64,000 nt of DNA from a virus: the IMG/VR virus record IMGVR_UViG_3300020203_000008, positions 64,001 to 128,000 of that record; one strand, 5' to 3'. The first letter of the stretch is position 1. Every line of letters starts with the position of its first letter. The translations under genes and the position numbers were made by a program. Shown in pieces: positions 13,301-52,110 of the stretch. The notes beneath the pieces were generated by a model, which did no database searches, had not been told where the DNA came from, and worked only from the letters and a program-made list of their open reading frames with translations.

Positions 13301-15751
13301 TTCTTCAATCGAAGTAGTGGATTTGCTAACACAGTCGGTGCTGGTCTTGCTTTCGCTGGTGTTAATGTCCTCTTGGATTCTCGCACTAAGTACCAATCTG
13401 AAGCCTTGGACTGGGCGAACCGGATTCGAAGTGCCGATGAAGATGCTGTTGACAAGATTATTGCCAAGTACAATAAGCAACAAGCCCCGACAAATACTCT
13501 CAAGGACAGTATCAGCGGCAAACTCAATGGACTCCTCCCTGTCGGTGGAGCGCTTCAGGGTCTTGCTGCATTCCTTACTAACGAGGAGTTCCGGGGTGAA
13601 GTAACAACCTTCTTTAGTGGGGGAAAGACCAAGGACGACGTTGTTGAAGATTCTCTCCAGCAAAGACGTGCAGCCAACAATACCGTTCCTCTCTTAGAAG
13701 CATTCAAGAGTGAGTATAAGAAGAGGAATACTGCAAGAATTGTTAAGTTCAAGGAGGTTGTTGATTTTCTACAGAGCGGTCAGTTCGGTGAGGGTAAGAT
13801 TCTTGAGATCTTCAAGGAGCCGGAAGCGGCAGCTAAGCTCACCGGCAAGCAAGCAGCGAAGCAGATTCAAGCTGTTATAGACTTCTTGGGTGACGGTTCA
13901 GATGATGCTGCCAATCAGATCGTTGAAAATTATATCCAGATTCTACAGAGCAACCCGGCTACTCCTAAGAGGCTCTTGAAGAATGTTGTTGCCGCGCTTC
14001 GTGATTCCCAGAAAAAAGCTTCAGATCAAGCTGGACCGACTGGCGCTGATCGCGAGACTCTTGATACATCCAAGGCTCTTTTTGAGGCTGGAGATAAGCC
14101 TCTTAATGAATACATCAAGTCCCTTGATTCTTTTATCTCGGCGCTTAAGACTATAAAAGATCCTAGTGATGATCAAAAGAAGGACCTTGCCCAGAAGCAG
14201 AAGGAGGCTAGGGACGCCCTAACGACTGCGGCGAAGGAACAGAACGATCTCATCAAGTTTGTGGATGAACTTCGTGCTGGCGAAGCTCGTCCAATTGACC
14301 AGCTAAATGCAGCGAGAGGACTACTAAATAATCCCAATCTTACGGCAGAGGGTCAGGTTGAAGCGGCTAAGGGAGTTCTCTCTGCCCAGCAGGATGTGTT
14401 CCTCCAAGCTGTTACTTCTTCGGGCAAAGGCATCGGTAGCGTTATTGCTGATCTACAGGCCGGATTTAAGCCTGACGCCAAGGCACTTGCAGTCATTCGG
14501 AAGCGAGTAGCTGACCTTAATGCTCGTGGTATCAACGTCAGTGTTGATGATATTGTTGCTGGTCAGGCCAAGGGTGCCCGTGAGGAAGTAAACAAGCTTC
14601 TTGATCTTCAGGGTCGTCAGTCTGCCGTGGCGATTGGACCTAATGCTGTCAACCAGGCAGCCCTGTCTCTGCGTACCGCTCAGGCGAAGCTTAAGAATGC
14701 TGCTCCAGGTACAAGTACAATTGAAGCACAGACGGTTGTCCTTGAAGCCCAGAAGGGCTTGAATGATGCTATTAGGACTCAGGCTCGGGCCGTTGAAGAT
14801 GGTTACCAGGCACTCTCTCGGGCCTCGCTTGGGAATCAGAATCCTATTGCCCAGGCCAGGTTCGATATCGCTGGCGCTGATATCGCCACCCGTCGCGCCT
14901 ACGAGGACCAGGATCCAGGTGCCCTAATCCAGGCGCTGGCTACTCGTCGCCAGGCTGGGGTTGCCCTCTTGAAGGCGCAACAGGACATTGACGACGCTTA
15001 TAGGGAACTTCTCAAGAGTCAGACGAACGATCCAATTAAGCAGGCTTACTCAGATATTGTTGCAGCCAGTGTTGCTTTCGACAGAGCTAATGCTCAGAAC
15101 GACCAGGCCGCTGCCTTCCGGGCCTTGGCCCAAAGGAATGAAGCCATCAAGGCAGGGCTTGCTAGCATTAGTGACCTGTACTCTTCCATTAATGAGTTTG
15201 CTACATCCCTCGCCAACTTTAAGGGCGATGCGGTGTCGGCTGCCGAGATCAGTGTCACTGAGGCTACTAGGAAGCTCCAGGAAGCCGTCAGTCAGGATGC
15301 TGGTCAGGCTTCTATTAATCGGGCTCGGGCGGCCCTACAGGATGCTCAGGGGGGTCTCCGGGATTCCAAGCTGAACAAGCAGTTGGACGATATCGACTTT
15401 GCTTTGGAGCTATCCAAGATCTCTGTTAATCAGGCCATTCAGCAGTTAACTGCTCTCCTCCAGATTCCTAATCTAACAGAGGAGCAGACTCGTGGAATTC
15501 TGCGTAAGATCAACTCCCTGAAGCAGGGACTGAGCCAGGATCTCCAGTTTAATCTGCCAACTGAATTGAAGTTGCCTACCCTCTACGAGTCTCGCCGCTT
15601 GAACCAGAGCAATGGGGCTTACCAGGATAATCGAGTTATATCTATTCAGTTGTCTCCGAATACTCCGACAGATCTTAATGCGGCAGTACAGCAGATTGTG
15701 GATGCCGTGAATCAGCCTCCTGTACTCGGATCAAGACCTAGGATTTATTGA
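10310..15751 (+). CDS. tape measure protein
   Basis: 1813-aa Ala/Gln-rich helical protein with a tape-measure-like core (~11950-12800) and hydrophobic Gly-rich segments. Confidence 0.9.
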   Translation: MADNNFEFGFTFDWSQPERSTEQFIQKVRRELQRLNQLSVSGGSPLKGVEALDSSTKKLLESGRRASSSATGSSPAGKLNEQEKARASGLSAETKAQGQAVEAVNERRRAIDAQTRQAALFTKQDAANLQQLKRVRTQNALTSEGAVTAGDNKAAGELVAAKRRRATAEQQAAENAVNPGDIRANAELASSKRRRALRENLAAERTYTPAEIQATGDLVAAKRRRVTKEQQAAEGAITPQDRQASANLAAIKQRRVAQERAITTRQTASDQELLRANAESVVNSRLRSAREKSFVNEAALGKGPNAGTAATAAKLDAENAVNSKRIRAQQQALEEKAIASGPGGRTGFVNEQAGARSSQALLNAQIRAEATRRQAASSEYTSAVASTAISQRRLKAKVDEQVAKAVVGDSATLQREANAAVAKKTAANIKSAKVAEKILANQSGELDEIVRAKVANKRLTAAIQARVNAELKAAQNTNTAPGSAQGGGTLFQRLQSRFAQRGSGQGGQDLRAPEEFQRLGQFVGSKALTTGAFAFSGAALFGVVNTIQAAVEEANKFQVVMVSVEQQLISTDQAGQLPQFRKAIIDISNETGVAASEVGSVAFQLRGAFGDTAKSVAEASAAIKLSVVSGLSVGDITDSLTATALSYKTSINSIGDSALGIQERTGVLAKETIRFVADIAPVAKQVGLSLKEITAIGAVAQQQSGRGGAALAEAFGRILPEVQKSGSAILELYNSTPALAGRVGQIGNALSQGNTGTVLKALIDDYGKLDRTTQNYVVTLLGGRREAASLIPVLRNASKVNQLIAQSSTDAGKTQEYFARVQRTLSTEVQRITREFQNFIGTLLRAGLSDILRDVLIVGGLLLRVIGGLARTFQSLNEVLGGFPVKILAGAAAMALLLKSARALGGLNLVQSLGGFFGIGSRAGGLGGVRGIAGRVGNFFGASSNAAQSQRAAAQSASAARGTQFSSLLGLNQGGLQQAPLGGRLGGINQFVRGQSNFFNRSSGFANTVGAGLAFAGVNVLLDSRTKYQSEALDWANRIRSADEDAVDKIIAKYNKQQAPTNTLKDSISGKLNGLLPVGGALQGLAAFLTNEEFRGEVTTFFSGGKTKDDVVEDSLQQRRAANNTVPLLEAFKSEYKKRNTARIVKFKEVVDFLQSGQFGEGKILEIFKEPEAAAKLTGKQAAKQIQAVIDFLGDGSDDAANQIVENYIQILQSNPATPKRLLKNVVAALRDSQKKASDQAGPTGADRETLDTSKALFEAGDKPLNEYIKSLDSFISALKTIKDPSDDQKKDLAQKQKEARDALTTAAKEQNDLIKFVDELRAGEARPIDQLNAARGLLNNPNLTAEGQVEAAKGVLSAQQDVFLQAVTSSGKGIGSVIADLQAGFKPDAKALAVIRKRVADLNARGINVSVDDIVAGQAKGAREEVNKLLDLQGRQSAVAIGPNAVNQAALSLRTAQAKLKNAAPGTSTIEAQTVVLEAQKGLNDAIRTQARAVEDGYQALSRASLGNQNPIAQARFDIAGADIATRRAYEDQDPGALIQALATRRQAGVALLKAQQDIDDAYRELLKSQTNDPIKQAYSDIVAASVAFDRANAQNDQAAAFRALAQRNEAIKAGLASISDLYSSINEFATSLANFKGDAVSAAEISVTEATRKLQEAVSQDAGQASINRARAALQDAQGGLRDSKLNKQLDDIDFALELSKISVNQAIQQLTALLQIPNLTEEQTRGILRKINSLKQGLSQDLQFNLPTELKLPTLYESRRLNQSNGAYQDNRVISIQLSPNTPTDLNAAVQQIVDAVNQPPVLGSRPRIY
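10740..11100 (+). repeat. ~30-aa (90-bp) imperfect repeats in tape measure N-terminus
   Basis: LVAAKRRR / LASSKRRR / LVAAKRRR / LAAIKQRR recur at a 90-bp period (ctcgttgc.gctaagcgtcg at 10781 and 10961). Confidence 0.7.
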
Positions 15752-16160: not shown

Positions 16161-18773
16161 ATGCGTTTAGTACCGACTGATTTTTGGAGGCTTTGGTCAC
16201 AAGGTGGGCCTTTCATCGGTGATGCTGGGGCTCCTCATGCCCGTGTCACCGTGGAACCTAGCTATAGGCTTCGGGAATCGGCTACTACTGCTGTTGGTAG
16301 TTTTGCTAGGGGTCCTATCCGTTGGTTTCAACGTCAAGATAATAGTCAAACTGAGTTTGAGGTTCCTAATATTCAGAGTATCCAAACTGAACGCAGTTTG
16401 GATGCTGATGCTGCATCATGTAACATTACATTGAAGAACCAGTGGATGAGAATTAATACCGACGCCATCTCTCCTGATGACGGAGAGTTGGGACAACCCG
16501 GTTATTTTACCTTCTCGCGTGGTGAATCTCCCGATGCTCAAGCTCGATGGGGTCATGAGACCATTGGAGACACTACCTTATGGTATGAGACTGCATATCC
16601 TGATAGTTCATGGACTATAGGTCATGTTATTGGGAGTTCTGCGGTTAACTCTCCACCGAATTGGCCGGATGCCATTACCTCTATCATCTGGGATTCAAGA
16701 GGTACGGCTATTGCTGCCCCGCCAGGACAACTGTTTTGGCGATACCATTTTACATTGGCTTCGCCTAAGACTGTGCGGTTTTATGCCGCAGTTGATGATT
16801 ACATGAAGCTGTATGTTGATGGAGAATTGAAAGTCAGTGAAATTGAAGGTCATAATGTAGTGACGGGTGGAGGCGGTTTGAGTATATCAACAGTTGTTGA
16901 TATGTCTTTGGCTGCTGGAAGTCATTGTATTGCTATCCAGGGAGTTAACCATAATCAATATCCTGATTATGGTAATCCAGGTGCCCTTCTATTCGTTATG
17001 TATGAACGCATAGGGACTACCTTGGGTCCACGTATGTTCGGTACTGATGATGTAGCGAATTGGAAACTTCTACCTTATCAGGCAACCGAACCTCCTCCTG
17101 TTATCTCTGGTTGGAATGAGATCCTCGTTCCAAATGCTTTGATTCGCACATATCAAGGCTATGGTGGAAAAGATAAATCAATAGCCCAAGCATTAACTGA
17201 TGGAAATATCATTCTTACAGGTGTTTGGCTGGTAGATTCTGTTAGGATCAATGCATCGGATAACTCGATAACCCTTGCTTGCAGGGATATGGCAAAGCTG
17301 CTTATCGAGCAACAGGTTTATCCACCGTTAGTGCCGCTAATCTATTATCCTCTTCGTTATGCGCGCTATATTCTTGGGGCCGAATTCACACCCGACAATG
17401 CTCCGCAGTTCTATGATCTTAAAGTAAAGCTGAAGAGCAGCAATTATATACAGGCTAGTTCTGATGCTATAGCGGGACCTAATGGTCCGATTCATGGGCA
17501 TGTTCCTTATGATTCTGATACGTCAAGGTTTGGGTCTCCCGGTTATGAGGGTGGTCGGGGTATAGATCCTAATAAGTATTGGCTTTCAGAGGGTTATTCC
17601 AGTGCCAATCCTGCTACTGGTCCGTGGTTTGAGGTGCTGTGCAGGGAGGATATAGATGCTGTTTATGTCCGTCCTTGGGCTGGAAATTATCAATGTTTTG
17701 TATCGGTATTTGAAGTTGATGCTACTAGCTTCACAGATATTGGTGCCGGAATGGTTGACGGGATACCCTATGTGGCGCAGTTTGGGACTCCTTGGGAGAC
17801 CCAAGCCTGGTATCGTTTAGGTCGAGTATATCGGCCTAATGTTATTAGATTTACTTTTAAGAATCTAGTACCAAGTCCCTGGGATGCACCAAATAATTAC
17901 CGTGTAGGTATCCGTGGATTTGCCGTTGCCCTTTCTGATGATGCTATTGCAAATTCCAAGCGTGATGGAAACTACAAAGACTATTCTGATATCGTTAAGG
18001 ACTTGTTGTTGTGGGGAGGATTTTGGTTCTATAATCCAGTTCTTGCTAACAATGAAAGACCTCCCGTATATGGAAGTATCGAATCTACGGGAGCTTGGGC
18101 TGATGATGTTATTCCAGAGGATAACTTTGATAAACGTCCATTGATTGATGGCATCAATTTTTTCAAGGAAATTGTCGGTTATGTCTTTAATGTAGATGAG
18201 ACGGGTGCTGCCAATTTTCGTTCACCAAACTGGTGGTCTTTGGGTAATTTCTTTGAGGATGGAACTCGTACCAATTTTATGCCGGAGATTGACGAACGGC
18301 TTCAGTTGACGAATTATACGATTGAAGTATCGGACAAAGCGGCACGTTCCGAGATAATCATTGGTACTGCCGATCCAACGGCAGGTTTTCAGGATACGAT
18401 TACCTCGCGCTATGTACCCCCTAATCAGGATCTCCTCAAGGGCATGGTCCGTCCAGCCATGTGGAACAATGGGGTATTCACCAACAAGGCTGAGCAGGAA
18501 ATTATGGCTCGACTGATTGCCCTGCATTCCTGGTTTGCTCAGCGCCAAGGATCTGTTACTTGTGTGGCTAATCCAGCCATACAAATTGATGATCAGGTGA
18601 GGATATATGAGCGTCAGACTGGCGAGACTTACGTACATTATGTGCGGGGTATAAGCACCCAGTTCGACGTTGAACAGGGTAACTACACGATGACGCTTAC
18701 GACGAACTGGTTGGGTGAACGAGATAACTGGGCTATTCAGCTAAGCGATTCAGCAACGACTTTTGGAGATTAA
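16161..18773 (+). CDS. tail tip/hub protein with inserted carbohydrate-binding-like domains
   Basis: Hub motifs (CRDMAKLL; NPAIQIDDQVRI). Insert with AVDDYMKLYVDG...GSHCIAI...NPGALL (PA14/jelly-roll-like) and a discoidin-like segment. Confidence 0.65.
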   Translation: MRLVPTDFWRLWSQGGPFIGDAGAPHARVTVEPSYRLRESATTAVGSFARGPIRWFQRQDNSQTEFEVPNIQSIQTERSLDADAASCNITLKNQWMRINTDAISPDDGELGQPGYFTFSRGESPDAQARWGHETIGDTTLWYETAYPDSSWTIGHVIGSSAVNSPPNWPDAITSIIWDSRGTAIAAPPGQLFWRYHFTLASPKTVRFYAAVDDYMKLYVDGELKVSEIEGHNVVTGGGGLSISTVVDMSLAAGSHCIAIQGVNHNQYPDYGNPGALLFVMYERIGTTLGPRMFGTDDVANWKLLPYQATEPPPVISGWNEILVPNALIRTYQGYGGKDKSIAQALTDGNIILTGVWLVDSVRINASDNSITLACRDMAKLLIEQQVYPPLVPLIYYPLRYARYILGAEFTPDNAPQFYDLKVKLKSSNYIQASSDAIAGPNGPIHGHVPYDSDTSRFGSPGYEGGRGIDPNKYWLSEGYSSANPATGPWFEVLCREDIDAVYVRPWAGNYQCFVSVFEVDATSFTDIGAGMVDGIPYVAQFGTPWETQAWYRLGRVYRPNVIRFTFKNLVPSPWDAPNNYRVGIRGFAVALSDDAIANSKRDGNYKDYSDIVKDLLLWGGFWFYNPVLANNERPPVYGSIESTGAWADDVIPEDNFDKRPLIDGINFFKEIVGYVFNVDETGAANFRSPNWWSLGNFFEDGTRTNFMPEIDERLQLTNYTIEVSDKAARSEIIIGTADPTAGFQDTITSRYVPPNQDLLKGMVRPAMWNNGVFTNKAEQEIMARLIALHSWFAQRQGSVTCVANPAIQIDDQVRIYERQTGETYVHYVRGISTQFDVEQGNYTMTLTTNWLGERDNWAIQLSDSATTFGD

Positions 18774-18774
18774 T

Positions 18775-18918
18775 ATGGCACACGAACAGAGACCAGTATT
18801 TATTGTTGACGATATCCTACGTGGTTATCTTATGCGTTGTGAGTCAAAGTCTGTTACCGTAGCGCGTTTGGATGGGATCTTGAACCGCGTTGCGAAGGGA
18901 ACAGTGGTAGCAGGCTAA
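18775..18918 (+). CDS. small hypothetical protein (47 aa, not in ORF track)
   Basis: MAHEQRPVFIVDD...VVAG fills the gap; its stop overlaps the next ATG. Confidence 0.55.
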   Translation: MAHEQRPVFIVDDILRGYLMRCESKSVTVARLDGILNRVAKGTVVAG

Positions 18919-19355
18919 TGGTAGATGTCAATGTTCCCAGACTTGGGAGAATGCTGAAAGGTCAGCAAGAGGACAGGCGAGGCGAGATAGGGCGAGGCGC
19001 TGCTTTTCATGCTGGTAGGCATGAGCTTGAGGGCTTCATAGAGACGACCGGAGCAGGTGAAGTTCTGGTAGATGTTCATTTCCCAGTTCGATTCATGGAG
19101 AAGCCGAACATGACATTTGGGGGCGAACTCACTCCAAATCAGGGAGCTGTTCTTGGCAATTTCCCCACCGTGAGTGTAGTAGTTGTGACGTGGGATCGTG
19201 AGGACCAGGTTGGTGGCTTTTACTACAATGGATGTTCATTGGGTATTGTAACCAGTGGGCCAACGGATATGAGAATGTTCGTTCACTGGAAGGCTTCAGG
19301 GAAAGCTTTCGTTAATCCGGTAAAACATGGCGGAACTTTGGGCGAGGCTATCTAA
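18918..19355 (+). CDS. minor tail protein
   Basis: VHFPVRFMEKP...VHWKASG resembles H-type-lectin-like tail domains; synteny. Confidence 0.5.
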   Translation: MVDVNVPRLGRMLKGQQEDRRGEIGRGAAFHAGRHELEGFIETTGAGEVLVDVHFPVRFMEKPNMTFGGELTPNQGAVLGNFPTVSVVVVTWDREDQVGGFYYNGCSLGIVTSGPTDMRMFVHWKASGKAFVNPVKHGGTLGEAI

Positions 19356-19426
19356 TTCTTGATTAGATGGTTGTAAGGGTCGATCTAAAATCAGGGCTCT
19401 AGTAAAGGGAATTAGGGGAATAAGTA

Positions 19427-20818
19427 ATGGCAGGCAACACATCACATTATCGTCTACAGAAACTAGCCCAGAGCGATTCATTCGACCTGAACGGTTATAA
19501 GTTCACTAATGCTGACCGGGATCAAATTGATAGGCTTCTCTATCAAGGAGCCGAAGGCCATCGACACACCGGTACTTCTACCAGTACGGCTACTCCGTCC
19601 ACTGGGCCGTCAGCTACCGTATCAACTACTGGGGGCACGCTCAGTTCTGGGCTAACTATCTACTACAAATATGCCCTTGTAGATATTTATGGAAATGAGA
19701 CTGCTGCCTCTCCTGAAACAGTTGTCTCAACTATTGCTTCTCTGTTGCAACCTTCTTCTCCGACGATGACTACTCAGACCACTGGTGGTACGCATCTACC
19801 GGGCAACTATTTTTACGTTCTGAGTGCCTTCACTGGAGCAAACACCAGTGAAACTAAAGCCCTCTCCCCGGCATATATTACAGTGCCCGTTGGAACGAGT
19901 ACGAACAAGGTTGTTCTAACTCTTCCAACTTTGCCATCCGGAGCTTCGGGATTCAATATATACAGGAAGGGACCAGGAGATCTCTCTTACTTTTTCCTGG
20001 CGTCCCTGAATATAGGCGCTACTCCAGCTACAACCTATACTGATAACAATTCGGTCACAGAAGATTGCAACAGATCGTTGCCGACAAGCAACACAACTAA
20101 TAATACCAACAAGGTTAGGATATCCTATCCTGGTACAACACCTACTATTCCGGCTGGCTATACCTGGAAAATATATCGAAGCTTTTCTAATGGTATCTGG
20201 GATAACACAACTCTCCATTGGGTTGTAGAAGAGACGAGTGTAGGATCCGGCATTATCGTCACTTATTACGATGATGTTGGAAACTCGACATCGGGCGGTA
20301 GACCGCAGGATGCGACCATTTCGGTCGGGCAGCCAACTAAGATTCTACTAACCAATTCTACTGAAGTTCAGGGTTCCCTGCCGATGGGGAATGTAGCTGG
20401 CTTCCCGTTCGAAGTTACGTTTGCGTTTAGTGGTACTCTATCGGTCCAAACGGGTAAGTCGATTTGGATTTGTGAGTTTCCTAACTTTCAGGTTTTGACA
20501 GCTCGTGCTGTTCTGGGTTTGGGATCTACTCCTGCTTCTGCATCTGTGATTGTCGATGTTAATAAGATCAGTTTCGGGGCTACTCCGACCGCAGTAACCA
20601 TGTTCGCTAATCAGGCATCTCGTCCGAGGGTTTTGGTGGGAGCGACTCGTGGTGCTACTGCTGCTCCTGATAGTCGATTTCTTCTAGTCGCTGGAGACGG
20701 AATCACCTGCGACGTGGACCAAGTAGGCGGCGGAGCTACACCTACTGATAATAACCTGACTATCCATATTTATGGATTCGCATATGGATTCCCAACGACT
20801 AGTTGGGTTAACTCCTAA
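19427..20818 (+). CDS. tail fibre/minor tail protein (Thr/Ser-rich, Fn3-like repeats)
   Basis: Two repeats of TTGGT..G..YY...GNET..S...FNIYR/WKIYR. Confidence 0.6.
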   Translation: MAGNTSHYRLQKLAQSDSFDLNGYKFTNADRDQIDRLLYQGAEGHRHTGTSTSTATPSTGPSATVSTTGGTLSSGLTIYYKYALVDIYGNETAASPETVVSTIASLLQPSSPTMTTQTTGGTHLPGNYFYVLSAFTGANTSETKALSPAYITVPVGTSTNKVVLTLPTLPSGASGFNIYRKGPGDLSYFFLASLNIGATPATTYTDNNSVTEDCNRSLPTSNTTNNTNKVRISYPGTTPTIPAGYTWKIYRSFSNGIWDNTTLHWVVEETSVGSGIIVTYYDDVGNSTSGGRPQDATISVGQPTKILLTNSTEVQGSLPMGNVAGFPFEVTFAFSGTLSVQTGKSIWICEFPNFQVLTARAVLGLGSTPASASVIVDVNKISFGATPTAVTMFANQASRPRVLVGATRGATAAPDSRFLLVAGDGITCDVDQVGGGATPTDNNLTIHIYGFAYGFPTTSWVNS

Positions 20819-20829
20819 CGTAGGGGATT

Positions 20830-21855
20830 ATGGAAGTTAGAATTGTTCGTCCTAAAGTTCCTCAGGTACGCGTGCGGCAGGGTCCTTTCTCTACAAGTCC
20901 CCGTTCAGCGGTGACTTTGTTGAGTGAAGCGGTTCAATCTCCTGAGTTAGCTCATGTTTGGAAGATAGATCGACTGGTTGTTAGCCTCCTAGATCCTGAC
21001 AATGCTCTTGAGGTTAGCTCCCAAGAAATCAAGAGTGATAGTCGTGGTTCATTTTTCTTGTCTGCTTTCACGACTAGCATGCGTATCTATAGGATGCCTG
21101 AGAGAGGCCCGACCTTACTCAATGATCCATTGCCGGATCCAGTAGGTAATCTGACTGGATACTTCACGATAGATAAAGCAAATAATCTTCTCTATGCTAC
21201 GGCTGGCACACAAGCTTTGACATCTGCTTCCATTTGGGAGTGCGATCTATCTACGGACACCTGGAGATTGATTAGTGGAAGTATCTCTACGAGTGGATAT
21301 GTGGAGGGATCCGATCCTAGATATTCTCAGCTTGGAGGGATTGTCAAAGCTGGTAATTTTTTGTATGTGGCAGATCAAGCTGGCAGGGTGATCCGTCGCG
21401 TCTCTTTAGCCGGACAGTCAACCATACACTATGGAGATATCCTCACGCCTCGTGGGTTTACTTATTTAGGTTATGCTTATGATAATGTGTTTGCATCTAA
21501 TGATGTAAACCTCATTAGAATTAATACAGATCTATCTGAAACTACTATTCCAATCTATGATACTGAGGATCCCATCCTCCTAAACTATAAGTACCAACTC
21601 ATCTGGACGAATCCGGCTCCCGATTCAGCCGATTTTGGGTGGCCCTATAATGATTATGCTCCTACCGTGAATGGTTTTGGCGTAGCTCAAGATCAGCTTC
21701 TTGTGACGGTACGTATGAGCTTCCCTAGTTATCCTAATTCTGTAGGAACCCTGGTACTTCAAAAATCTTTTGGCGCACCTGCTCGTGGTATGGATACAGC
21801 CAGTGATGGTACTCTTTATCTGGTCATGTCTCAGATTCCTGTCGATATCGCCTAA
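20830..21855 (+). CDS. minor tail protein with NHL/beta-propeller-like segment
   Basis: LYVADQAGRVIRRVSL and RGMDTASDGTLY blades. Confidence 0.5.
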   Translation: MEVRIVRPKVPQVRVRQGPFSTSPRSAVTLLSEAVQSPELAHVWKIDRLVVSLLDPDNALEVSSQEIKSDSRGSFFLSAFTTSMRIYRMPERGPTLLNDPLPDPVGNLTGYFTIDKANNLLYATAGTQALTSASIWECDLSTDTWRLISGSISTSGYVEGSDPRYSQLGGIVKAGNFLYVADQAGRVIRRVSLAGQSTIHYGDILTPRGFTYLGYAYDNVFASNDVNLIRINTDLSETTIPIYDTEDPILLNYKYQLIWTNPAPDSADFGWPYNDYAPTVNGFGVAQDQLLVTVRMSFPSYPNSVGTLVLQKSFGAPARGMDTASDGTLYLVMSQIPVDIA

Positions 21856-21872
21856 CTTTATAAGGAATCATT

Positions 21873-22205
21873 ATGGATCGATACTTTGATGCAAGTAATC
21901 AACCACTACCTGGGCCTACTAGGCTGGTTACTATCTCTGAGGCTAATGAAGTGCAATATTTCGTAGGACAGGGTTCTATCCCGGCGTATGACGGCATTGA
22001 TCCAGTCCTGTTTTTTCCTATCCCCATAAACACTCCATATCCTCCTAATAATTTGGTACTCCCCATAGATCAGCCACCCACGCACACTAATGGGTCTAGC
22101 TTGGCAAGATTTCAGACTGATGTAACTGTAGGGTTGCAAGCTAGAGGTATTGTTTCCGTTCAGCGACAGCAAATTAGAGTTCACAAAGTAGAAAGCGGAG
22201 TCTAG
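21873..22205 (+). CDS. hypothetical tail-region protein
   Basis: RBS TAAGGA; Pro-rich. Confidence 0.6.
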   Translation: MDRYFDASNQPLPGPTRLVTISEANEVQYFVGQGSIPAYDGIDPVLFFPIPINTPYPPNNLVLPIDQPPTHTNGSSLARFQTDVTVGLQARGIVSVQRQQIRVHKVESGV

Positions 22206-22207
22206 AG

Positions 22208-22732
22208 ATGGCTGACTGGGATCCATTTATCGCATCAAACGCTCCGACCATCTGTCCTACGAGTGCTGAGTCAACTGGTGCTCAGGCCATATGTGATGGC
22301 AACATTCTTAGTAGTATTTGGGCAGTTGCCAACACGGCTGTCTACATTCCGTTTGTTGTCTACCAGTCATTTATGGTTGTGAAGTTGAGTGTCTGGAATG
22401 GAACAGTTGTTGCCGGTAACTTTGACTTGGGTGTGTATGATGATCAGAAGAACAGGCTGGTTTCTTCTGGTTCTACGGCTCAGGCTGGTACATCTGTTAT
22501 TCAGACAGTAGATGTCACCGATGTATTGCTATTGCCTGGTCAGTATTATATGGCGTGTGTTGCTAATGGGATTAGCGGTCGATACTTTAAGTACACATCT
22601 GTTGCTTCTGTCCAGGGGTCATGGGGAGTTCTGAGTCAGACCTCTGCGTTCCCGCTGCCTACTACGGCTAATTGGGTACGTAACACGATGGAGGCTCCAA
22701 TAATGATGGTTCACCAAAGGACGACAAACTAA
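22208..22732 (+). CDS. minor tail protein (paralog 1)
   Basis: Beta-sandwich; clearly similar to the next ORF. Confidence 0.6.
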   Translation: MADWDPFIASNAPTICPTSAESTGAQAICDGNILSSIWAVANTAVYIPFVVYQSFMVVKLSVWNGTVVAGNFDLGVYDDQKNRLVSSGSTAQAGTSVIQTVDVTDVLLLPGQYYMACVANGISGRYFKYTSVASVQGSWGVLSQTSAFPLPTTANWVRNTMEAPIMMVHQRTTN

Positions 22733-23259
22733 TGAGTGACTGGCCAACTATCTTTTCTCACAACAGCACGATCAATTCTTCTTCACAGGAAGTGCCGATA
22801 GCCTTTGTGTTCGGTAGCGCTTCTAGTGCCTGGCCATCGGCTAACCGAGGTATCTTTGTGCCGTTTAATCTTCGCGCTCCTTTTCTTGTGCAGAGATTAT
22901 TCTGGCTCAATGGAACCTCGGTCGCAGGTAATGTTGATTGTGGTATTTATATGACTACGAATCCGGGTAATTGCACAAGGCTGGTGAGCACAGGAAGTAC
23001 GGCTCAGTCGGGAGGGACAGCCATCCAGGCTGTCAATATTACTCCTCTTTTGCTACAGCCAGGTGGCTATTACATGGCTCTATCAGTTTCTACTACTTCG
23101 GCAACCATTAGGACAAGAGGATCTAACGTGGTGGCTTGCCAGGCTGCTGGGATCGTACAAGCACCGTCCATGGTGCCACTGACCACGAATCCAACGCTGG
23201 AAGCTCCGGTCTCCAATTATCTGCCATTGTTTGGCCTAACCTCAGCATTAGTGATTTAA
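22732..23259 (+). CDS. minor tail protein (paralog 2)
   Basis: Shares NGT.VAGN.D.G.Y, RLVS.GSTAQ and LLL.PG.YYMA with the previous ORF. Confidence 0.6.
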   Translation: MSDWPTIFSHNSTINSSSQEVPIAFVFGSASSAWPSANRGIFVPFNLRAPFLVQRLFWLNGTSVAGNVDCGIYMTTNPGNCTRLVSTGSTAQSGGTAIQAVNITPLLLQPGGYYMALSVSTTSATIRTRGSNVVACQAAGIVQAPSMVPLTTNPTLEAPVSNYLPLFGLTSALVI

Positions 23260-23278
23260 GGATTAGAAGGATTAGAAT

Positions 23279-23635
23279 ATGGCTGTAACTGCATCTGCTT
23301 CAGGAACTCAGACCGCAGAAGTGACGACAGAACATCAGTTGGCAGATACTTATGTCGCTGGAACTTATACGTTCCATGTTGATACGGTTAACCTGGCGGC
23401 GGGAGATGTTGTTGAGCTGAGAATTTACCAAATGATCTTGAACGGTGGAACCGCTAGGGTCATCTACTCAACCAGATATGCAGGCGCTCAGCCTACCGAC
23501 GATCTCATTAAGGTTAGCGTACCTGTTAGTAGCGAGCTAGGTTCTGCCTCGCCAAGCGTAGCGCTGCGATTCAGCTTGAAGCAGACTTTCGGGACTTCCA
23601 GGAACTTTCCTTGGAAGGTACTTAAGTACGCCTGA
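23279..23635 (+). CDS. minor virion protein
   Basis: 118-aa beta protein in the tail fibre cluster. Confidence 0.55.
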   Translation: MAVTASASGTQTAEVTTEHQLADTYVAGTYTFHVDTVNLAAGDVVELRIYQMILNGGTARVIYSTRYAGAQPTDDLIKVSVPVSSELGSASPSVALRFSLKQTFGTSRNFPWKVLKYA

Positions 23636-25227
23636 TGGCATCTGCGTCGACCCGCCATATTGAAGTTCTCTTACCTACTATAGCCGGATTGGTTAATCCA
23701 ACTGTAGTAATAGCTACAAGCGCGGTTGGTTCTCCAGCGATTCAGACTAGTTCCACGGTTGTTGTCTCCACTGTTACTGCTGTTGCGGCGGTGGGGGTTG
23801 CTACAGTAGAGACTGGTACTCCAGCTACAGTTAATGCAACGGCGGTGAGTGCTGTTGCTGCGGTTGGAACGGTAACTATCACGACATCAGCCCTTGTGAC
23901 TGCCGTTGTGGTGTCTCGTTCTGTGGCGGTAGGTGTACCTACAATCTCCACTATTACTTCTTCTCCAGTAAATGTTGCTTGCGGGGTGTTCAGTAAATCC
24001 ACATCCGCTGCTCCAGTGTCGCAATCTGTTACGCTTGGGTTTCAGCCCAAAGCGGTATTTCTGTGGTCTGATAGTACGACCGTTGATGACACTCTAGCCA
24101 CTAATGGCATGTTCACGGTGGGTATTACATCCTCTGTTACAGACTCTATCGCCGTGTGTAATTATGCACCTAATGGGAGCAACTCGATCAACCGGCATAA
24201 GACACATGGAGATAGCAAGCTTATTGTTTTCAGGACAACAACAATTCTAGCAGAAGCCAGCCTGACATCTTTTAATGTAGATGGATTCACTATGTCGTGG
24301 ACCACCAATAATGCCACGGCATACCGGATTAACTATATAGCCTTTGGCGGCGATGACGTTACTGCCCAGATGGTGAAATGGTATCCCACCGACAATATCG
24401 AGCAGTTCTCTGTTACTGGGGTGGGCTTCCAGCCTGATGCACTTCTTAATGTCAACAGTTATGTCAACTTTGATGGAGGATCTCTTCCCCGCACTGTCAC
24501 GGGAATCAACTTCGGGATTGGGGCAGCTTCGCCTTCAGGGCAATTTACCACTTACATGGGGGAGACGACGGGCTTCGGGGGCAACGAGGTTTCTTATTCT
24601 AGGTTCATTGATGATGGTTTCGTAAGCTTCAATGGATTTTTGGGGGGAACAGAGAGTTGTAGAATTGCCCTTGTCTCAATGGATGTAGACGGATTTACGG
24701 TGAATGCTACGAAAGTGGGCACCGGAGCCATTGAATTATACGCATTAGCGTTAAAATTTGATTCTGGGTCTATAGAAGTAGGAAACTTCCAGAAATCCAC
24801 ATCCTCTGCTCCAGCTACACAGAATTTGTCTAGCGTGGTCATCTCTCCAGATTCTATGTTCTTTGTTGGGGATAAAGTTACGACGCCAGATACCGATGTA
24901 GCTAACGCTCATCTCTATGTGGGTTCAGGGGATGATGCTGCTCAAGTGAGTACTGCTTGGGGGGCCAGGAATGGGACGAATCCATCTGAAGTTAAGTCGA
25001 TCAGTGGGGGCACTAAAGCTATTACTGTTAATGATGGCACTAATATGGGTGTCGCTGATGCTAAAGCTTCGCTATCTCTAGCGTCAGCGATTCCGGTTCT
25101 CACTTGGGACCCCAACTCATCTAATGCCGTTAATATGGGTTATATGGCATTCCAGTTCGGCGTGGAGTCTGGTGGCGGTGGGGGATCTGGCAATGCTGTC
25201 TTGACTCCTGGCTTCATTCCACTCTGA
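23635..25227 (+). CDS. tail fibre/receptor-binding protein
   Basis: Val/Ala/Thr shaft repeats, then repeated GFQP..A/D...DGFT units. Confidence 0.6.
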   Translation: MASASTRHIEVLLPTIAGLVNPTVVIATSAVGSPAIQTSSTVVVSTVTAVAAVGVATVETGTPATVNATAVSAVAAVGTVTITTSALVTAVVVSRSVAVGVPTISTITSSPVNVACGVFSKSTSAAPVSQSVTLGFQPKAVFLWSDSTTVDDTLATNGMFTVGITSSVTDSIAVCNYAPNGSNSINRHKTHGDSKLIVFRTTTILAEASLTSFNVDGFTMSWTTNNATAYRINYIAFGGDDVTAQMVKWYPTDNIEQFSVTGVGFQPDALLNVNSYVNFDGGSLPRTVTGINFGIGAASPSGQFTTYMGETTGFGGNEVSYSRFIDDGFVSFNGFLGGTESCRIALVSMDVDGFTVNATKVGTGAIELYALALKFDSGSIEVGNFQKSTSSAPATQNLSSVVISPDSMFFVGDKVTTPDTDVANAHLYVGSGDDAAQVSTAWGARNGTNPSEVKSISGGTKAITVNDGTNMGVADAKASLSLASAIPVLTWDPNSSNAVNMGYMAFQFGVESGGGGGSGNAVLTPGFIPL

Positions 25228-25240
25228 TTTATGTCGATAT
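25214..25240 (+). promoter_or_regulatory. putative sigma-28-like promoter (TCAT-N15-GTCGATAT) for pup
   Basis: Same spacing as the 2207 and 7758 matches. Confidence 0.4.
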
Positions 25241-25261
25241 GTTCGTGACCTAAGGAGTCAC

Positions 25262-25447
25262 ATGGGACAGATCCGTAAGCAGAGAAAAGTCGAGAAAAAG
25301 GTTGAGTCTGTAGCGGAACCGGTCGAAGCCAAGGACAGTACTGCCCTTAAAGCTGAAATGGATGCACTCCTAGATGAGATTGATTCAGTCCTAGAGGAAA
25401 ATGCAGCGGAGTTTGTTAAAGGCTACATTCAAAAAGGGGGGGAATGA
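25262..25447 (+). CDS. pup: prokaryotic ubiquitin-like protein Pup
   Basis: C-terminal LKAEMDALLDEIDSVLEENAAEFVKGYIQKGGE matches the Pup signature (DDLLDEIDDVLEENAEDFVRAYVQKGGQ/E); 61 aa; RBS TAAGGAG. Confidence 0.93.
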   Translation: MGQIRKQRKVEKKVESVAEPVEAKDSTALKAEMDALLDEIDSVLEENAAEFVKGYIQKGGE

Positions 25448-25659
25448 ACGAAGAAGACGAGCTACTTCGCAAGCTGGACGAAGAAATGCAGGATCGCAAG
25501 GTCATCTCCCTCATCCTCCGAGAGGGGCAGCCGGTGGAGGTCGAAAATGGAGGGCTTCCAGCCGATACTGTATTAGCAACACTATTTAAGGCTCTACTTT
25601 TCCTGGTCTTGGATGATTATATGGATGAAGACGAAATCCTTTACGAGGAAGAAGACTAG
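25444..25659 (+). CDS. small acidic protein
   Basis: ATGA-coupled to pup; very Asp/Glu-rich. Confidence 0.65.
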   Translation: MNEEDELLRKLDEEMQDRKVISLILREGQPVEVENGGLPADTVLATLFKALLFLVLDDYMDEDEILYEEED

Positions 25660-25673
25660 GGAAGAAGAGAGCG

Positions 25674-25862
25674 GTGAACAAAATCGCCATCCAGAGGGCT
25701 AATGGGATTACCAGAATTGGGATTCTCTGTGAAGGTCATACCTCCGATGCGATTGGAATTCTCGTTAAAGCGGGTAAGGAATACCGGATACGAGAGTACG
25801 ACGGGCCTCAAATCTGTGAAGCCTGTGGACAAACAGACTATCTCCATGTGGAGGAGGGTTAA
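25674..25862 (+). CDS. small Zn-binding-like protein
   Basis: CxxH and CxxC motifs; coupled to the holin start. Confidence 0.5.
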   Translation: MNKIAIQRANGITRIGILCEGHTSDAIGILVKAGKEYRIREYDGPQICEACGQTDYLHVEEG

Positions 25863-26203
25863 TGAATTCGATTGTAAAGCTTGATGTTGGTTTCTTGGCC
25901 ATCGTTGCGGGTACGTTCATTCCGATCGTGGTCGCATTGGTAACCAAGTGGAAGACATCTTCAGGAGTCAAGGCTGTCGTTAATGGTTTACTAGCCGCTG
26001 TAGCCGGTGCTGTCGCTGTCGCTACCCAGGCTAATGGAGTCGTTAACGTCAGGAATACGGTAGGGGCTATTGCTCTAGCGTGGTTGACTTCTGTTGCCAC
26101 CTACTATGGCCTTTGGAAGCCAACTGGAATTGCTAATGCAGTTGGTGAGAAGACCCAGAACGTGGGTATTGGTTCGAATCAATCCGGTATTCCGGGGGCA
26201 TAA
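25862..26203 (+). CDS. holin
   Basis: 2-3 TM segments; IPIVVALVTK...VKA...ATYYGLWKPTG is a typical actinophage holin pattern. Confidence 0.7.
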   Translation: MNSIVKLDVGFLAIVAGTFIPIVVALVTKWKTSSGVKAVVNGLLAAVAGAVAVATQANGVVNVRNTVGAIALAWLTSVATYYGLWKPTGIANAVGEKTQNVGIGSNQSGIPGA

Positions 26204-26205
26204 TT

Positions 26206-26472
26206 GTGGACCGGCTAAAGTCGGGCACGGCAGGATGGGTCCTTCTCACCGCATTAGTGTTGAGTTGGGACTACGGAGTAGGTATGCGGGCGGGGGGAGA
26301 AACTCTCTCTTCCAGTTTTGCTAGAGCCACTCGCCATCCCCGTGCCCGATGGCCGGTTATATCTATGTGGGTTATCATAACGGCTCATTTGTTTGAACGG
26401 TTGCCAGAGATGGTTGATCCATTTCATCATATGGCAAAAGTAGTCAGCACGCGGGGGGCGGGGCGTGAGTGA
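26206..26472 (+). CDS. small membrane protein
   Basis: AGWVLL...GETLSSSF...HPRARWP...AHL...DPF; a type common in actinophages. Confidence 0.55.
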   Translation: MDRLKSGTAGWVLLTALVLSWDYGVGMRAGGETLSSSFARATRHPRARWPVISMWVIITAHLFERLPEMVDPFHHMAKVVSTRGAGRE

Positions 26473-26678
26473 ACAAATTTCGAACACCCCGGAATATACA
26501 TTGGCCGAGGTTGACCAGGGATGGGATTATCTTCATCCTGGGCGTCCTCATGATCGGTTCGCAGACGGTTCACTCCCTCTCAGGGGAGTCGGCGGACGCA
26601 CAGATCGTGACGGGTGGGATCGCACTGATCCTCGCTCCAGGGATTCTGCACGCAGGCTCGAAGAAGCGGGACGAGTGA
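26469..26678 (+). CDS. small 2-TM membrane protein
   Basis: Two hydrophobic segments and a basic C-tail; overlaps the upstream stop. Confidence 0.5.
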   Translation: MNKFRTPRNIHWPRLTRDGIIFILGVLMIGSQTVHSLSGESADAQIVTGGIALILAPGILHAGSKKRDE

Positions 26679-26799
26679 GGACCGAGGTGGGCGGTCCCGC
26701 TCTAGTCAAGGTCGTCAAGAGATTCCGTATCGAGATCATCTACGTCATTGTTGCGGGGACAATCGTTGCCTGCACTCCCCTGATCCAGCGGGTAGTCGG

Positions 26800-27144
26800 A
26801 TGAGTCTGAGCCTGATCAAGAAGTTGACCCCTTACTTCTTTGTGGTGGTCGTCTCGATCGGCCTCATCGGTCAGATCCAGTTCAACGCCGACCGGAACGC
26901 GAGGGAGATACGAGATCGTATTCAATCAAAGTGCATCTCCATCCAGTCGAACTGGGACACGATTACCCGCATCCTCCTGACCGGACCCGACGACCCGCTT
27001 GTGATCCCGCCCGAGGTTGCGCCGGAAGTGCCCGAGTCGACGGTCGTGCTCATCGAGGAGATCCTCACCCAGGCAAACGACCGGGCCAACGCCCAGAAGC
27101 GCGAATCGCAGGAGAAGCTCGGACCACGACCGGGGTGCCCATGA
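26800..27144 (+). CDS. membrane-anchored protein (lysis-accessory?)
   Basis: N-terminal TM, coiled coil and two Cys; high GC3. Confidence 0.55.
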   Translation: MSLSLIKKLTPYFFVVVVSIGLIGQIQFNADRNAREIRDRIQSKCISIQSNWDTITRILLTGPDDPLVIPPEVAPEVPESTVVLIEEILTQANDRANAQKRESQEKLGPRPGCP

Positions 27145-27324
27145 CCGTTCTCGAATTTATCTTAAACTCAAATTAACAAACCAGTGAGAGCAATTAGCGA
27201 AAATTTTCCTGGTGCCGTCAAGCAAATCAAGAAAATCTGAGCAGAAATCCTTGCAACGGTACGGCTAGAGGCGTAGAACCTCACTACCGCCTGAGGGCGG
27301 GATAACCGAACGTATTAGTCGGGA

Positions 27325-27597
27325 GTGTTCGTGGGGCAGCCTTCTACGCTTGATGCTAGGTCTTTGACGCTTGCAGACGCGATCAGATACCTGAGGGAGA
27401 AGCGGGGCTTCAGTGCCCGATCTCTCAGCCTTAAGGCTGGAGTGAGTCCCTCCTATGTTGGGAAGCTGGAATCAGGCGAGATTGAACCTTCTGTGAGAGT
27501 GTTCGCAAGAATCGCTTTGGTTCTCGGTATGTCCCAACCGGAGATCTTTTTCTGTGTCGTGCAGGAAGGGCTCCGCGACCTCCCGACTAATGCTTGA
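27325..27597 (+). CDS. XRE/Cro-C1 family HTH regulator
   Basis: IRYLREKRGFSARSLSLKAGVSPSYVGKLESGEIEPSV signature. Confidence 0.85.
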   Translation: MFVGQPSTLDARSLTLADAIRYLREKRGFSARSLSLKAGVSPSYVGKLESGEIEPSVRVFARIALVLGMSQPEIFFCVVQEGLRDLPTNA

Positions 27598-27622
27598 TAC
27601 TGTCCCACCCTCATGTTATTGT
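27594..27622 (+). promoter_or_regulatory. sigma-70/SigA-type promoter TTGATA-N17-TATTGT (extended TG)
   Basis: Upstream of the replication operon; spacer contains TGTCCCACCCTCA. Confidence 0.55.
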
Positions 27623-27645
27623 TCTAAGATATTAGGCCGGAGGGC

Positions 27646-28497
27646 ATGCAAGTGATGGATATGCTGGGGCGCATTAGTGCCTCAAAAATGAGTACCTTCA
27701 TGACCTGTCCTTTGCAGGCTAAATTCCAGTACCTGGACAAGCTTCCGAGGAAGCAGCATGCTTCGGCATCGTTCGGTACCTGTGTCCATCATGCTTTGGA
27801 TTTCTATAATAATACCGGGGACCTTAATAGGTCCGTAAACGAATTCCTCGATGTTTGGGAGAATCCCGAGAAACTAGGGGTGACTCCAGAGACCTGGCCT
27901 AAGGGTGGGACCTACGGCGGGATGCGTCAGCGTGGAATTGAGATGCTTCGTGGTTACCACGACGGTCTGAAGTGGGACACCAGAGAAGTCCTTGCCACTG
28001 AACACAAGTTTCTGGTCCCGCTGGGAGAGTTTGAAGTCACCGGATTCGTAGACCTCCTTGAGCTACGCAAGAATAAGCGTGGCAAGTCTGAGATCCGAGT
28101 CGTTGATTATAAAACGAATAAGAAGCAACCATTCCTGAATTCGTTGCATCTTAATATTCAGTTCACCACCTATGCTTATGCAGCCGAGCAACCTGAGTTT
28201 TGGTTAGGTAACGGTCCCGATTTTCCAGCCATGGAGAACGGGGCCTACTACTGGGAGATGTATAAGGACCTGCCGCGTCGTCCTATCTGGTATCAGCTAG
28301 AAACCCAGAAGGAGATGGACGCCGGGCTCCGAGACGACCAGGATTACATGCGTCTTTACCGGGTCTGCAAAGAGATGGCGAAGGCCGTGAAGTACGACGT
28401 GTTCATCCCTCAGATTAGTGGGGACTCCTGCGTGTTCTGTCCCTACACCGAGCCTTGTGGCATCCCGATTCCAGTTCCAGAGGAGGAAGATGAATAA
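27646..28497 (+). CDS. PD-(D/E)xK RecB/Cas4-like exonuclease
   Basis: ISAS..TCP, GTCVHHAL, GFVD..VVDYKT, Q...Y and C-terminal CxxCxxxxxC. Confidence 0.85.
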   Translation: MQVMDMLGRISASKMSTFMTCPLQAKFQYLDKLPRKQHASASFGTCVHHALDFYNNTGDLNRSVNEFLDVWENPEKLGVTPETWPKGGTYGGMRQRGIEMLRGYHDGLKWDTREVLATEHKFLVPLGEFEVTGFVDLLELRKNKRGKSEIRVVDYKTNKKQPFLNSLHLNIQFTTYAYAAEQPEFWLGNGPDFPAMENGAYYWEMYKDLPRRPIWYQLETQKEMDAGLRDDQDYMRLYRVCKEMAKAVKYDVFIPQISGDSCVFCPYTEPCGIPIPVPEEEDE

Positions 28498-48003: not shown

Positions 48004-48957
48004 CTAAAACTTCACGCTCGTCTTGAGGCCAACAATCGCCGTCTCGAACAAGCTCATACGAGACTTCGCCTCACCGAGACCAGTCTCCAAAAGCTCCTCG
48101 TACTCCACAGTGCGGGCAGTCAAACGCTGGTAATCAGTCACCAGCTTGGCATACCGATCAGATGAGATCTGCTTACCGGTGCGTTGGATCTCAGTGATCT
48201 CAGCCATGATCTCATCCACCGCATCACAAGTCTCAGCCTCAAAAGCCTTACGGACCATCTGACGCTGCTTCTTGTCATCGATCAGCGGCAAGGAGTGGAA
48301 CGTAGATTCCGTACCGGGGAGAGCGTTCACGAACGTCTCCAGAGATTCCATCTTGACAGCCTGATCTTCGGTGATGAAATATACTGCTCCACCTTCACGG
48401 ACCAGAGTCGCGCCGAAGTCCAGGACACGCTTTCGGATGAACTCTCGGATGGCATAGGCGTTCAGGGAATCCTTCCAAGCTGCAAACTCGGAACGAATCT
48501 CTTCGGTAATTTCATCAACCTTGAGGTTGCCATTCACGTTGTCAGGGAGATCCTTAACAACAATTGCTGTCGTGTTCTTGTGAAATTCGATATCCCGGAG
48601 CTGAACATAATCCAGCTTCCGACCCTTACGATCAACGGTCTGACGCACAATACGTCGGCAGATAACGTTCTCGCCACGACCACCGAAGTCTTCAACAAGG
48701 TAGTTCTCGAAGACATTCACGTTGCTAGTCGGGATCTTCTTACGTGCTGCGTTCGAAGCAACTCGGCGGAAAACGTCGAAGTCTTTCGGGTAGGGCGGGA
48801 TCGTGGACGAAAGACCTACGGTATTCAGTCCGTTCACAACGTCTGCGTGAGACACCTTAAGGGTTTGGGAGACGGTGTACCAACAAAGCCGACCGAGCAG
48901 TACGCTCTTGTCGGCCAGGTTGACTCGCTTTACATGCTCTTGCAAAATATCAGTCAA
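48004..48957 (-). CDS. DUF6744-like protein
   Basis: LGRLCWYTVS...PKDFDVFRR...REGGAVYF plus C-terminal coiled coil. Family recognised by eye only. Confidence 0.55.
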   Translation of the reverse strand: MTDILQEHVKRVNLADKSVLLGRLCWYTVSQTLKVSHADVVNGLNTVGLSSTIPPYPKDFDVFRRVASNAARKKIPTSNVNVFENYLVEDFGGRGENVICRRIVRQTVDRKGRKLDYVQLRDIEFHKNTTAIVVKDLPDNVNGNLKVDEITEEIRSEFAAWKDSLNAYAIREFIRKRVLDFGATLVREGGAVYFITEDQAVKMESLETFVNALPGTESTFHSLPLIDDKKQRQMVRKAFEAETCDAVDEIMAEITEIQRTGKQISSDRYAKLVTDYQRLTARTVEYEELLETGLGEAKSRMSLFETAIVGLKTSVKF

Positions 48958-48983
48958 TGCATTCCTCCTACGTTAAGTTGCAT

Positions 48984-52053: not shown

Positions 52054-52073
52054 CTGTCTCCTTCCGGGAGGGC

Positions 52074-52099: not shown

Positions 52100-52110
52100 A
52101 CAAAGCTGCA

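Follow-up and report, generated by a model that had tools for sequence, protein, structure and literature searches.

The DNA analysed here, called the window throughout, is a stretch of 64,000 nt that comprises bases 64001-128000 of a 136,572-base IMG/VR virus record, which CheckV rates as 96% complete. It contains a short gene for a prokaryotic ubiquitin-like protein (Pup), which stands among the following features (window coordinates, with the strand where it was recorded).

10310-15751: tape-measure protein, upstream of pup (family match)
23635..25227, + strand: 530-aa late structural ORF, putative distal tail/fibre protein; no Pfam or PHROG match, position 3' of the tape-measure and tail proteins
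25252..25257, + strand: Shine-Dalgarno motif AAGGAG, 4 nt 5' of the pup ATG, read from the sequence
25262..25447, + strand: pup, 61-aa prokaryotic ubiquitin-like protein with C-terminal Gly-Gly-Glu, from the ORF list and matches to the PF05639 and TIGR03687 profiles
25444..25659, + strand: 71-aa acidic ORF, its ATG overlapping the stop codon of pup (ATGA); no Pfam or PHROG match
25862..26203, + strand: holin-like membrane protein of 113 aa, start of the lysis region (phrog_8269 'holin', E 7e-10)
26206..26472, + strand: DUF7427 small protein (PF24202, 45.7 bits, cut-off 27; phrog_1042)

The phage Pup and its neighbourhood

The pup reading frame opens with the ATG at 25262 and closes with the TGA at 25445-25447, and no in-frame ATG, GTG or TTG that could serve as an alternative upstream start lies between the preceding stop codon and this ATG. 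Its product, which ends in ...FVKGYIQKGGE, matches the Pfam Pup family PF05639 with an E value of 3.5e-19 and 69.9 bits (cut-off 27) over profile positions 6-69 of 69, and NCBIfam TIGR03687 with 62.5 bits (curated cut-off 41.45); in a PHROG search, the phage Pup matched no family. The profile matches lie far beyond chance, and the phage ORF is a genuine member of the Pup family. A first-pass annotation, made from the sequence letters, had proposed a 61-aa Pup ORF with a strong ribosome-binding site and had suggested a Pup HMM as a check. Its coordinates were exact, the AAGGAG motif and the GGE end are present, and the cut-offs of both profiles are exceeded by wide margins.

Free Pup is disordered by itself. 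In complexes, solved Pup segments are available with Mpa (PDB 3m9d and 3m91), with Dop and as a PafA-Pup fusion (4bjr), and residues 28/34-61 of the phage Pup align without gaps to the Pup segments of 7oy3, 7oxy, 3m91, 3m9d, 7px9, 9cku and 4bjr. The review PMC8223512 describes two conformations of bound Pup, a pair of short helices when it sits on PafA or Dop and a single long helix when it sits on the coiled coil of Mpa; at the level of sequence, the conserved C-terminal half, which includes the part that binds the Mpa/ARC coiled coil and the PafA/Dop groove, is present in the phage protein. Of its last 30 residues, 25 coincide with the consensus of 79 unique cellular Pups, and all positions that are invariant in those 79 are retained, with the exception of Ala49. 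At this position Glu is found in 79/79 of the nearest cellular Pups, and Ala also occurs there in other cellular Pup lineages. The remaining 31 residues stand N-terminal of the conserved 30, which gives a total of 61 aa compared with a median cellular Pup length of 65. A truncated 'mini-Pup' blocker, without one of the enzyme-binding helices or without a ligatable end, was considered as a candidate and ruled out, the C-terminal 30 residues being complete and the end being GGE.

The nature of this end matters for conjugation. As set out in the same review (PMC8223512), PafA joins the side-chain carboxylate of the C-terminal Glu of Pup to lysine, and Pups that end in Gln first need deamidation by Dop; the statement of the first-pass annotation that Glu-ending Pups can dispense with this step agrees with that account. 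Both forms are common in cells, with GGE at the end of 48 and GGQ at the end of 31 of the 79 unique cellular Pups. The same annotation had also called the N-terminus of the phage Pup unusually Lys-rich, a feature that it thought could promote poly-pupylation. An unusual Lys content of the protein did not stand up to comparison: its eight Lys are matched in 8/79 unique Pups from the nearest cellular loci and in 22/120 of the best database matches, the median being 6 in both sets. The N-terminal part is only somewhat more basic, with 8 K/R and 5 D/E, where the medians are 6 and 8, respectively.

The DNA that carries pup is that of a real, tailed phage without pupylation enzymes. Downstream of the pup region, genes for Sak4, a primase-helicase and a class II ribonucleotide reductase form a replication block, and a 1234-aa ORF just upstream of the window matches terminase-large-subunit PHROGs. 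Searches of the whole 136,572-base record for PafA/Dop (PF03136), the proteasome (PF00227) and pup_AAA (TIGR03689) gave no match at E<=1. The absence of pafA, dop, mpa/arc and prcAB, which had been proposed for the window, is borne out there and holds for the entire record, and the canonical pup-proteasome locus, in which pup is flanked by dop, prcB/prcA, arc and pafA, is not present in it. An auxiliary gene should lie within a viral genome, on contiguous DNA and with phage genes on both sides, and this is how pup is found.

Only 34 nt separate the 530-aa ORF from pup. The first-pass annotation had placed pup between the last tail-fibre gene and the holin; the downstream half of this description is supported by the holin PHROG match, while the 'tail fibre' label upstream is drawn from the position of the ORF. 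The candidate promoter of its own that pup had been credited with was not found in the 34-nt gap by a consensus scan, which covered sigma-70-type sites only. Across positions 23000-28000, the same type of scan returned 2 promoter-like sites, against a mean of 5.1 in shuffled sequence, and neither lies upstream of pup; nor did a consensus scan find a terminator-like site between 25227 and 25262. It is simpler to suppose that pup is co-transcribed with the late genes than that it has a promoter of its own. Because pup follows the last structural gene at a distance of 34 nt and has a good ribosome-binding site, the phage Pup is likely to be produced late.

Cellular relatives and the probable host

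The best cellular matches to the phage Pup are 47-65% identical and derive mostly from metagenome-assembled genomes of Acidimicrobiia and of other or unclassified Actinomycetota. In a Pup tree of 145 rows and 64 columns, which was built by a quick method and from which the truncated sequences L030 and L033 and all duplicates were excluded, the phage Pup falls into a 78-row set (SH-aLRT 93, not starred) together with 40 Acidimicrobiia-type cellular rows, with no resolution inside the set. The viral label changes 10 times on this tree and the starred branches force only 1 of these changes; the tree supports no claim of repeated capture, nor of a donor. The affinity to Acidimicrobiia that had been predicted for the phage Pup is reflected in the nearest matches and in its placement in this set, which lean that way, although the tree is poorly resolved.

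Among the products of the phage are a WhiB-family protein (48.7 bits, cut-off 23.6) and Ku together with an ATP-dependent ligase, which are characteristic of actinobacteria and of the phages that infect them. Several aquatic Acidimicrobiia loci have a GC content of 0.44-0.54, and that of the phage is 0.51; the Acidimicrobiia-type relatives possess the full arc-dop-pup-prcB-prcA-pafA locus. When cultured relatives were sought with the capsid-region protein and the exonuclease, only distant ones were returned, namely Bacillus phages at 20-25% and Microbacterium phage Cece at 26%, and in the same search one record of a mangrove-soil metagenomic phage gave a 54.5% match. On sequence features of this kind, the host is probably an actinobacterium and perhaps a member of the Acidimicrobiia.

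A scan of metagenomes for pup loci was biased by the peptide patterns that it used and returned mostly other lineages. Markers for dop, pafA or prc were present in 15/80 of the loci it recovered, and 2/80 share any other protein with the phage. The large groups without markers are cellular, and pup has RelA/SpoT, RecJ, H+-pyrophosphatase and RNase H as neighbours in them. Because such cellular groups exist, the absence of markers is by itself no sign of a phage.

Pup in other viral genomes

An alignment-based pattern scan of IMG/VR recovered at least 50 loci with a Pup relative. Scans of this kind require exact degenerate peptide patterns, so that the counts are lower bounds and zeros could miss divergent enzymes. 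With this in mind, alignment scans for PafA and Dop found 0 relatives in IMG/VR compared with 50 for Pup, and a Pup_ligase match was present in 0/50 of the Pup-bearing IMG/VR records, including 0/6 of the records that are at least 90% complete. A further search and two GenBank records brought the viral set from these 50 loci to 55, with 37 unique sequences. With markers taken from a complete Acidimicrobiia locus, dop, pafA or prc was detected beside pup (within 6 kb) in 79/80 reference-genome loci, the lone exception being a 2.5-kb contig, versus 1/55 viral loci. That single marker-bearing 'viral' locus, GenBank MT835496, is an unverified faecal scaffold with arc/dop/pafA markers beside pup and looks cellular. 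These results indicate that viral contigs encode the tag but lack the enzymes.

The ends of the 37 unique viral Pups are GGE (19), GGQ (16), QGQ (1) and SGQ (1), and all of them terminate in Glu or Gln. Among the 34 that are full length, all have Gln at -5 and Gly at -2 (100% each) and 97% have Gly at -3, with Glu as the commonest last residue (56%), and positions in the helix are looser, as at Glu39 (56%). Since the search patterns were placed in the helix and not at the C-terminal end, this conservation of the C-terminus is not a search artefact. In one pair of loci (L042 and L046), the two Pups are identical but for the last residue, which is Glu in the former and Gln in the latter. As a pattern of sequence conservation, this fits selection on the conjugation chemistry more than on mere docking.

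A syntenic viral counterpart is locus L010 in the phage G004, whose genome of 163,481 bp is complete and has terminal repeats and whose tail, exonuclease and Sak4 proteins are 41-56% identical to those of the 136.6-kb phage of the window. The L010 gene sits as it does in the window, after fibre-like genes and before a small membrane protein, and lies 1.6 kb ahead of an Amidase_2/PG_binding_1 endolysin. The gene order is alike, but the L010 Pup is 67 aa long and ends in GGQ and hence would need Dop. Retention in a divergent relative and a composition matched to the phage are further marks of an auxiliary gene, and pup has both: in the window its GC content is 0.462 and its GC3 0.435, values which resemble those of its neighbours and are near the genome GC of 0.507. 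Apart from L010 and a few weak matches, the other orphan viral Pups have no further gene in common with the 136.6-kb phage.

A tblastn search of deposited phage genomes identified two Pup records, namely MT835496 and the Streptomyces phage Dagobah (MT711977), in which HUN42_00036 (QMP84414.1) is annotated as 'ubiquitin-like protein Pup' and directly follows the endolysin. Dagobah resembles the window in that its pup lies in a phage, adjoins a lysis gene, encodes a GGE end and is accompanied by no enzymes in the 8.1 kb inspected. It differs in that its Pup has 78 aa and a longer acidic middle and is 60% identical over residues 28-61 only, and Dagobah itself is a 47-kb phage unrelated to the 136.6-kb phage. 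The Dagobah genome paper contains 0 mentions of Pup, ubiquitin, proteasome or pupylation (PMC7650747), and no paper that describes or tests a phage-encoded Pup was found in the full-text literature, subscription journals and supplementary files being outside the scope of that search.

The surroundings of pup vary among the phages that bear it, and a common timing or partner cannot be assumed for them. The gene is near lysis genes in three phages (the 136.6-kb phage, that of L010 and Dagobah); an L004 ORF that had been taken for a lysin has no Pfam match. A PHROG tally of 133 neighbour proteins from 35 viral pup loci was led by terminase, helicase and HNH families, with no lysis family in the top 25, and a general linkage of pup to lysis was rejected on this tally. 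The 71-aa ORF that overlaps the pup stop was likewise considered as a conserved partner of Pup and rejected, since it is family-less, rare and distant from pup in the related phage. Among 1.84 billion representatives, 9 entries reached E<=1e-3, namely the ORF product, 3 long proteins and 5 small ones (72-85 aa, 35-46% identity), and a pattern scan of IMG/VR found no relative. Its homologue in G004 is 31% identical and lies at 128.6 kb, with the G004 pup at about 16 kb, and by eye it does not resemble any of the small ORFs that lie 3' of the pup genes of Dagobah, L005 and L008.

A candidate role in host pupylation

As a protein, the phage Pup is an ordinary Pup. It shares with those of cellular Actinomycetota a similar length, a near-full profile match, the gapless C-terminal half and the Gly-Gly-Glu end, and it is unlike them in being virus-borne, in its place between late structural and lysis genes, in standing without dop, arc, prcBA and pafA, and in Ala49. 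Its setting, as a virus-borne tag without enzymes, is not known to be recorded other than in a database annotation, that of Dagobah.

The reading that we favour, with moderate confidence, is that this full-length, ligatable, Glu-ending Pup is a host-derived auxiliary gene product which raises or sustains the pool of tag late in infection through the host PafA. Because ligase, depupylase, unfoldase and proteasome are all missing from the phage, its Pup would be able to act only by way of the PafA, Dop and ARC/Mpa-proteasome of the host. Made along with the late proteins, it could be ligated to lysines directly by the host PafA, as its Glu end would need no deamidation by Dop. The pool of ligatable tag would in this manner be raised or sustained late in infection, with the phage bringing the consumable part and the host the enzymes. 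Pupylation of host proteins might as a consequence be maintained or increased, which could benefit the phage either through proteasomal turnover and the recycling of amino acids or through the inactivation of particular host proteins; a link of the pupylation system to amino-acid recycling in nitrogen starvation is mentioned in PMC8223512. A further candidate effect is the saturation of Dop and ARC by the phage Pup.

Viral copies of consumable or fast-turnover host parts are familiar from other systems, such as the ubiquitin encoded by eukaryotic viruses and the psbA of cyanophages. The logic would be the same, in that the consumable piece is viral and the enzymes are those of the host, but the proteins and hosts are unrelated and the comparison is an analogy only.

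The main rival to this role as a tag is that of a competitor. Free Pup binds Mpa and Dop too, so the same protein could act in either way, and sequence alone does not separate the two. Acting as a decoy, free phage Pup would fill the coiled coils of ARC/Mpa and the groove of Dop/PafA and block degradation or depupylation, for example to shield phage proteins that have been pupylated. The half that binds Mpa and the enzymes is wholly conserved, so that binding would be no less plausible than ligation; no enzyme gene of the pathway accompanies pup; and its strong Shine-Dalgarno motif and late position would permit high expression. However, a pure decoy for Mpa needs no extreme C-terminus, and yet the terminal Gly-Gly-Glu/Gln is the best-kept part of the viral Pups. 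In addition, the phage Pup is full length and has its N-terminal segment, unlike a truncated blocker, and PafA would consume its ligatable Glu end anyway. Since the protein is full length and its ligatable end is conserved, we favour the role as a tag and consider a competitor on the whole unlikely, if still the alternative that deserves most weight.

It is considerably less probable that pup is a passenger, a captured host gene without a role in the phage that has been retained by chance. Phage genomes hold many small mosaic genes, and the context of pup varies from phage to phage, as would suit such a gene. Against this, pup stands at the corresponding site in G004, although the proteins common to the two phages are no more than 41-56% identical, the composition of the gene matches that of the phage, and copies are known from 50 IMG/VR loci and from one cultured phage. 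The 36 unique viral sequences that remain when the cellular-looking L003 is excluded moreover show a strong conservation that is typical of the family.

We regard it as very unlikely that the protein is merely Pup-like and works outside pupylation, for instance as a disordered acidic helper of virion assembly or of lysis timing. Such a function might account for the nearness of pup to lysis genes in the 136.6-kb phage, in the phage of L010 and in Dagobah, but this adjacency is not general, with 0 lysis families among the 25 commonest of 35 viral loci, and the residues that are kept are those for the partners of pupylation, including the terminal Gly-Gly-Glu/Gln.

Finally, the joining of a host pup region to phage DNA by mis-assembly or binning is scarcely credible, even if such errors exist (the supposed phage MT835496, unverified, with its arc/dop/pafA markers, looks cellular): contigs of three other runs bridge both junctions of the fibre-pup-holin order without a difference, pup has the GC content of its neighbours, the order recurs in the independent complete phage G004, and the record has no dop, prc or pafA, compared with 79/80 cellular loci that have them beside pup. 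The bridging contigs cover 23600-26624 (X4, a contig of 4824 nt), 24845-25398 (X5) and 25137-26420 (X6), each with 0 differences; the three runs agree in habitat label and year, so that a single campaign may have produced them. Some of the region, with the 3' end of pup among it (25367-25578), is also present in a soil run of 2023 (X9). Microbial-mat samples are among those that contain the phage, and the runs listed for the stretch include no RNA run. A chimeric host insert, which the first-pass annotation had named as one of the findings that would overturn its proposal, was looked for in this way; the bridging contigs, the matching GC content and the synteny in L010 make it very unlikely, and the contigs and the syntenic relative speak against mis-assembly.

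The role of the phage Pup as a late tag for the host PafA can be extended, tentatively and as a possibility that we would not place on a level with the role itself. The Glu-ending Pup might be ligated late in infection onto proteins of host defence, repair or housekeeping and at the same time saturate Dop and ARC, so that proteolysis would be reprogrammed for the making of virions in a manner comparable to that suggested by virus-encoded ubiquitin, with lysine-poor late proteins as a matching shield.

Studies of pupylation have so far treated it as a system of Actinomycetota that belongs to cells alone. The presence in a virus of the tag only would imply that phages manipulate pupylation, and would add a new chapter to the conflict between phage and host over protein degradation. 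The question is directly testable in the cultured and non-pathogenic pair of Dagobah and Streptomyces coelicolor, and the trait is present on at least 50 viral contigs. The phage Pup also bears on an idea that is put as a hypothesis in the review PMC13696103, namely that the proteins of actinophages avoid lysines to escape pupylation.

As a separate observation on lysine content, made in the 136.6-kb phage alone, the distal tail proteins contain 0-3.4% Lys, compared with about 6-8% in the replication proteins.

The ferredoxin gene and its cellular counterparts

About 34.5 kb ahead of the window's first base, the phage carries a gene with homologues in cellular pupylation loci (coordinates of the whole phage record, G000:C1):
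G000:C1:29505-29804, small ferredoxin gene (Fer4_15, 65.9 bits)

The ferredoxin gene found near pup in cellular pupylation loci is 44-71% identical to that of the phage (mostly 53-63%), and among the cellular loci listed, at least 20 have this homologue 3.5-5 kb from pup; in one of them (L099) it is divergent and lies directly upstream of arc. Two genes of the phage, pup and the ferredoxin gene, thus have cellular homologues that lie close to each other. A further gene of the phage is a clue to its host:
G000:C1:14546-14713, WhiB-family gene (PF02467; 48.7 bits against a cut-off of 23.6 bits), outside the window

The presence of this family points to an actinobacterial host.

Pup in other records

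The 159-kb GenBank record MT835496 (L003; 'Bacteriophage sp.', unverified) has a locus GC of 0.74. Because arc, dop and pafA markers flank its pup, the DNA around that gene, if not elsewhere in the record, looks cellular and actinobacterial. Two viral Pups from IMG/VR differ at the last residue alone (Glu in L042, Gln in L046), and by this comparison the ligation-ready, Glu-ending form and the Dop-dependent, Gln-ending form change readily into each other. Stand-alone pup also occurs in cellular lineages, represented by four metagenome contigs, one of 2.1 Mb (L156, L158, L204 and L188), where dop, prc and pafA were not found within 8 kb of pup. In L156 and L204, relA/spoT adjoins pup, with RecJ, H+-pyrophosphatase or RNase H close by, and in L188 a sensor kinase adjoins it.

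Lysine content of the late proteins

Lysine makes up 0-3.4% of the late distal-tail ORFs (window 16161-25227), as against approximately 6-8% of the replication proteins, and two ORFs of the phage lack it entirely:
Window 22732-23259, 175-aa ORF, zero lysine
G000:C1:42581-43684, 367-aa ORF, zero lysine

This composition, compared within one phage only, could be in keeping with shielding from pupylation.

Other gene clusters of the phage

Two groups of minus-strand genes lie in the window, and further genes precede it:
Window 48004-53298, - strand, clustered genes for a DUF6744 protein, a VWA-domain protein and a MoxR ATPase
Window 53321-54142 and 56607-57443, - strand, ATP-dependent DNA ligase domain protein and Ku-like protein
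G000:C1:59487-63191, 1234-aa ORF with PHROG matches, outside the window
G000:C1:50646-51878 and 57281-58243, UDP-glucose dehydrogenase-like and nucleotide-sugar epimerase-like genes, outside the window

For the MoxR ATPase, the match (bpMoxR, 149.7 bits) is to the 'MoxR-vWA-beta-propeller ternary system' type, and the ligase and Ku-like protein possibly form a phage end-joining pair. Residues ~400-770 of the 1234-aa ORF match PHROGs of several kinds (terminase, primase, helicase-loader and endonuclease), which suggests an intein-interrupted terminase large subunit. The UDP-glucose dehydrogenase-like and nucleotide-sugar epimerase-like genes directly precede the packaging genes.
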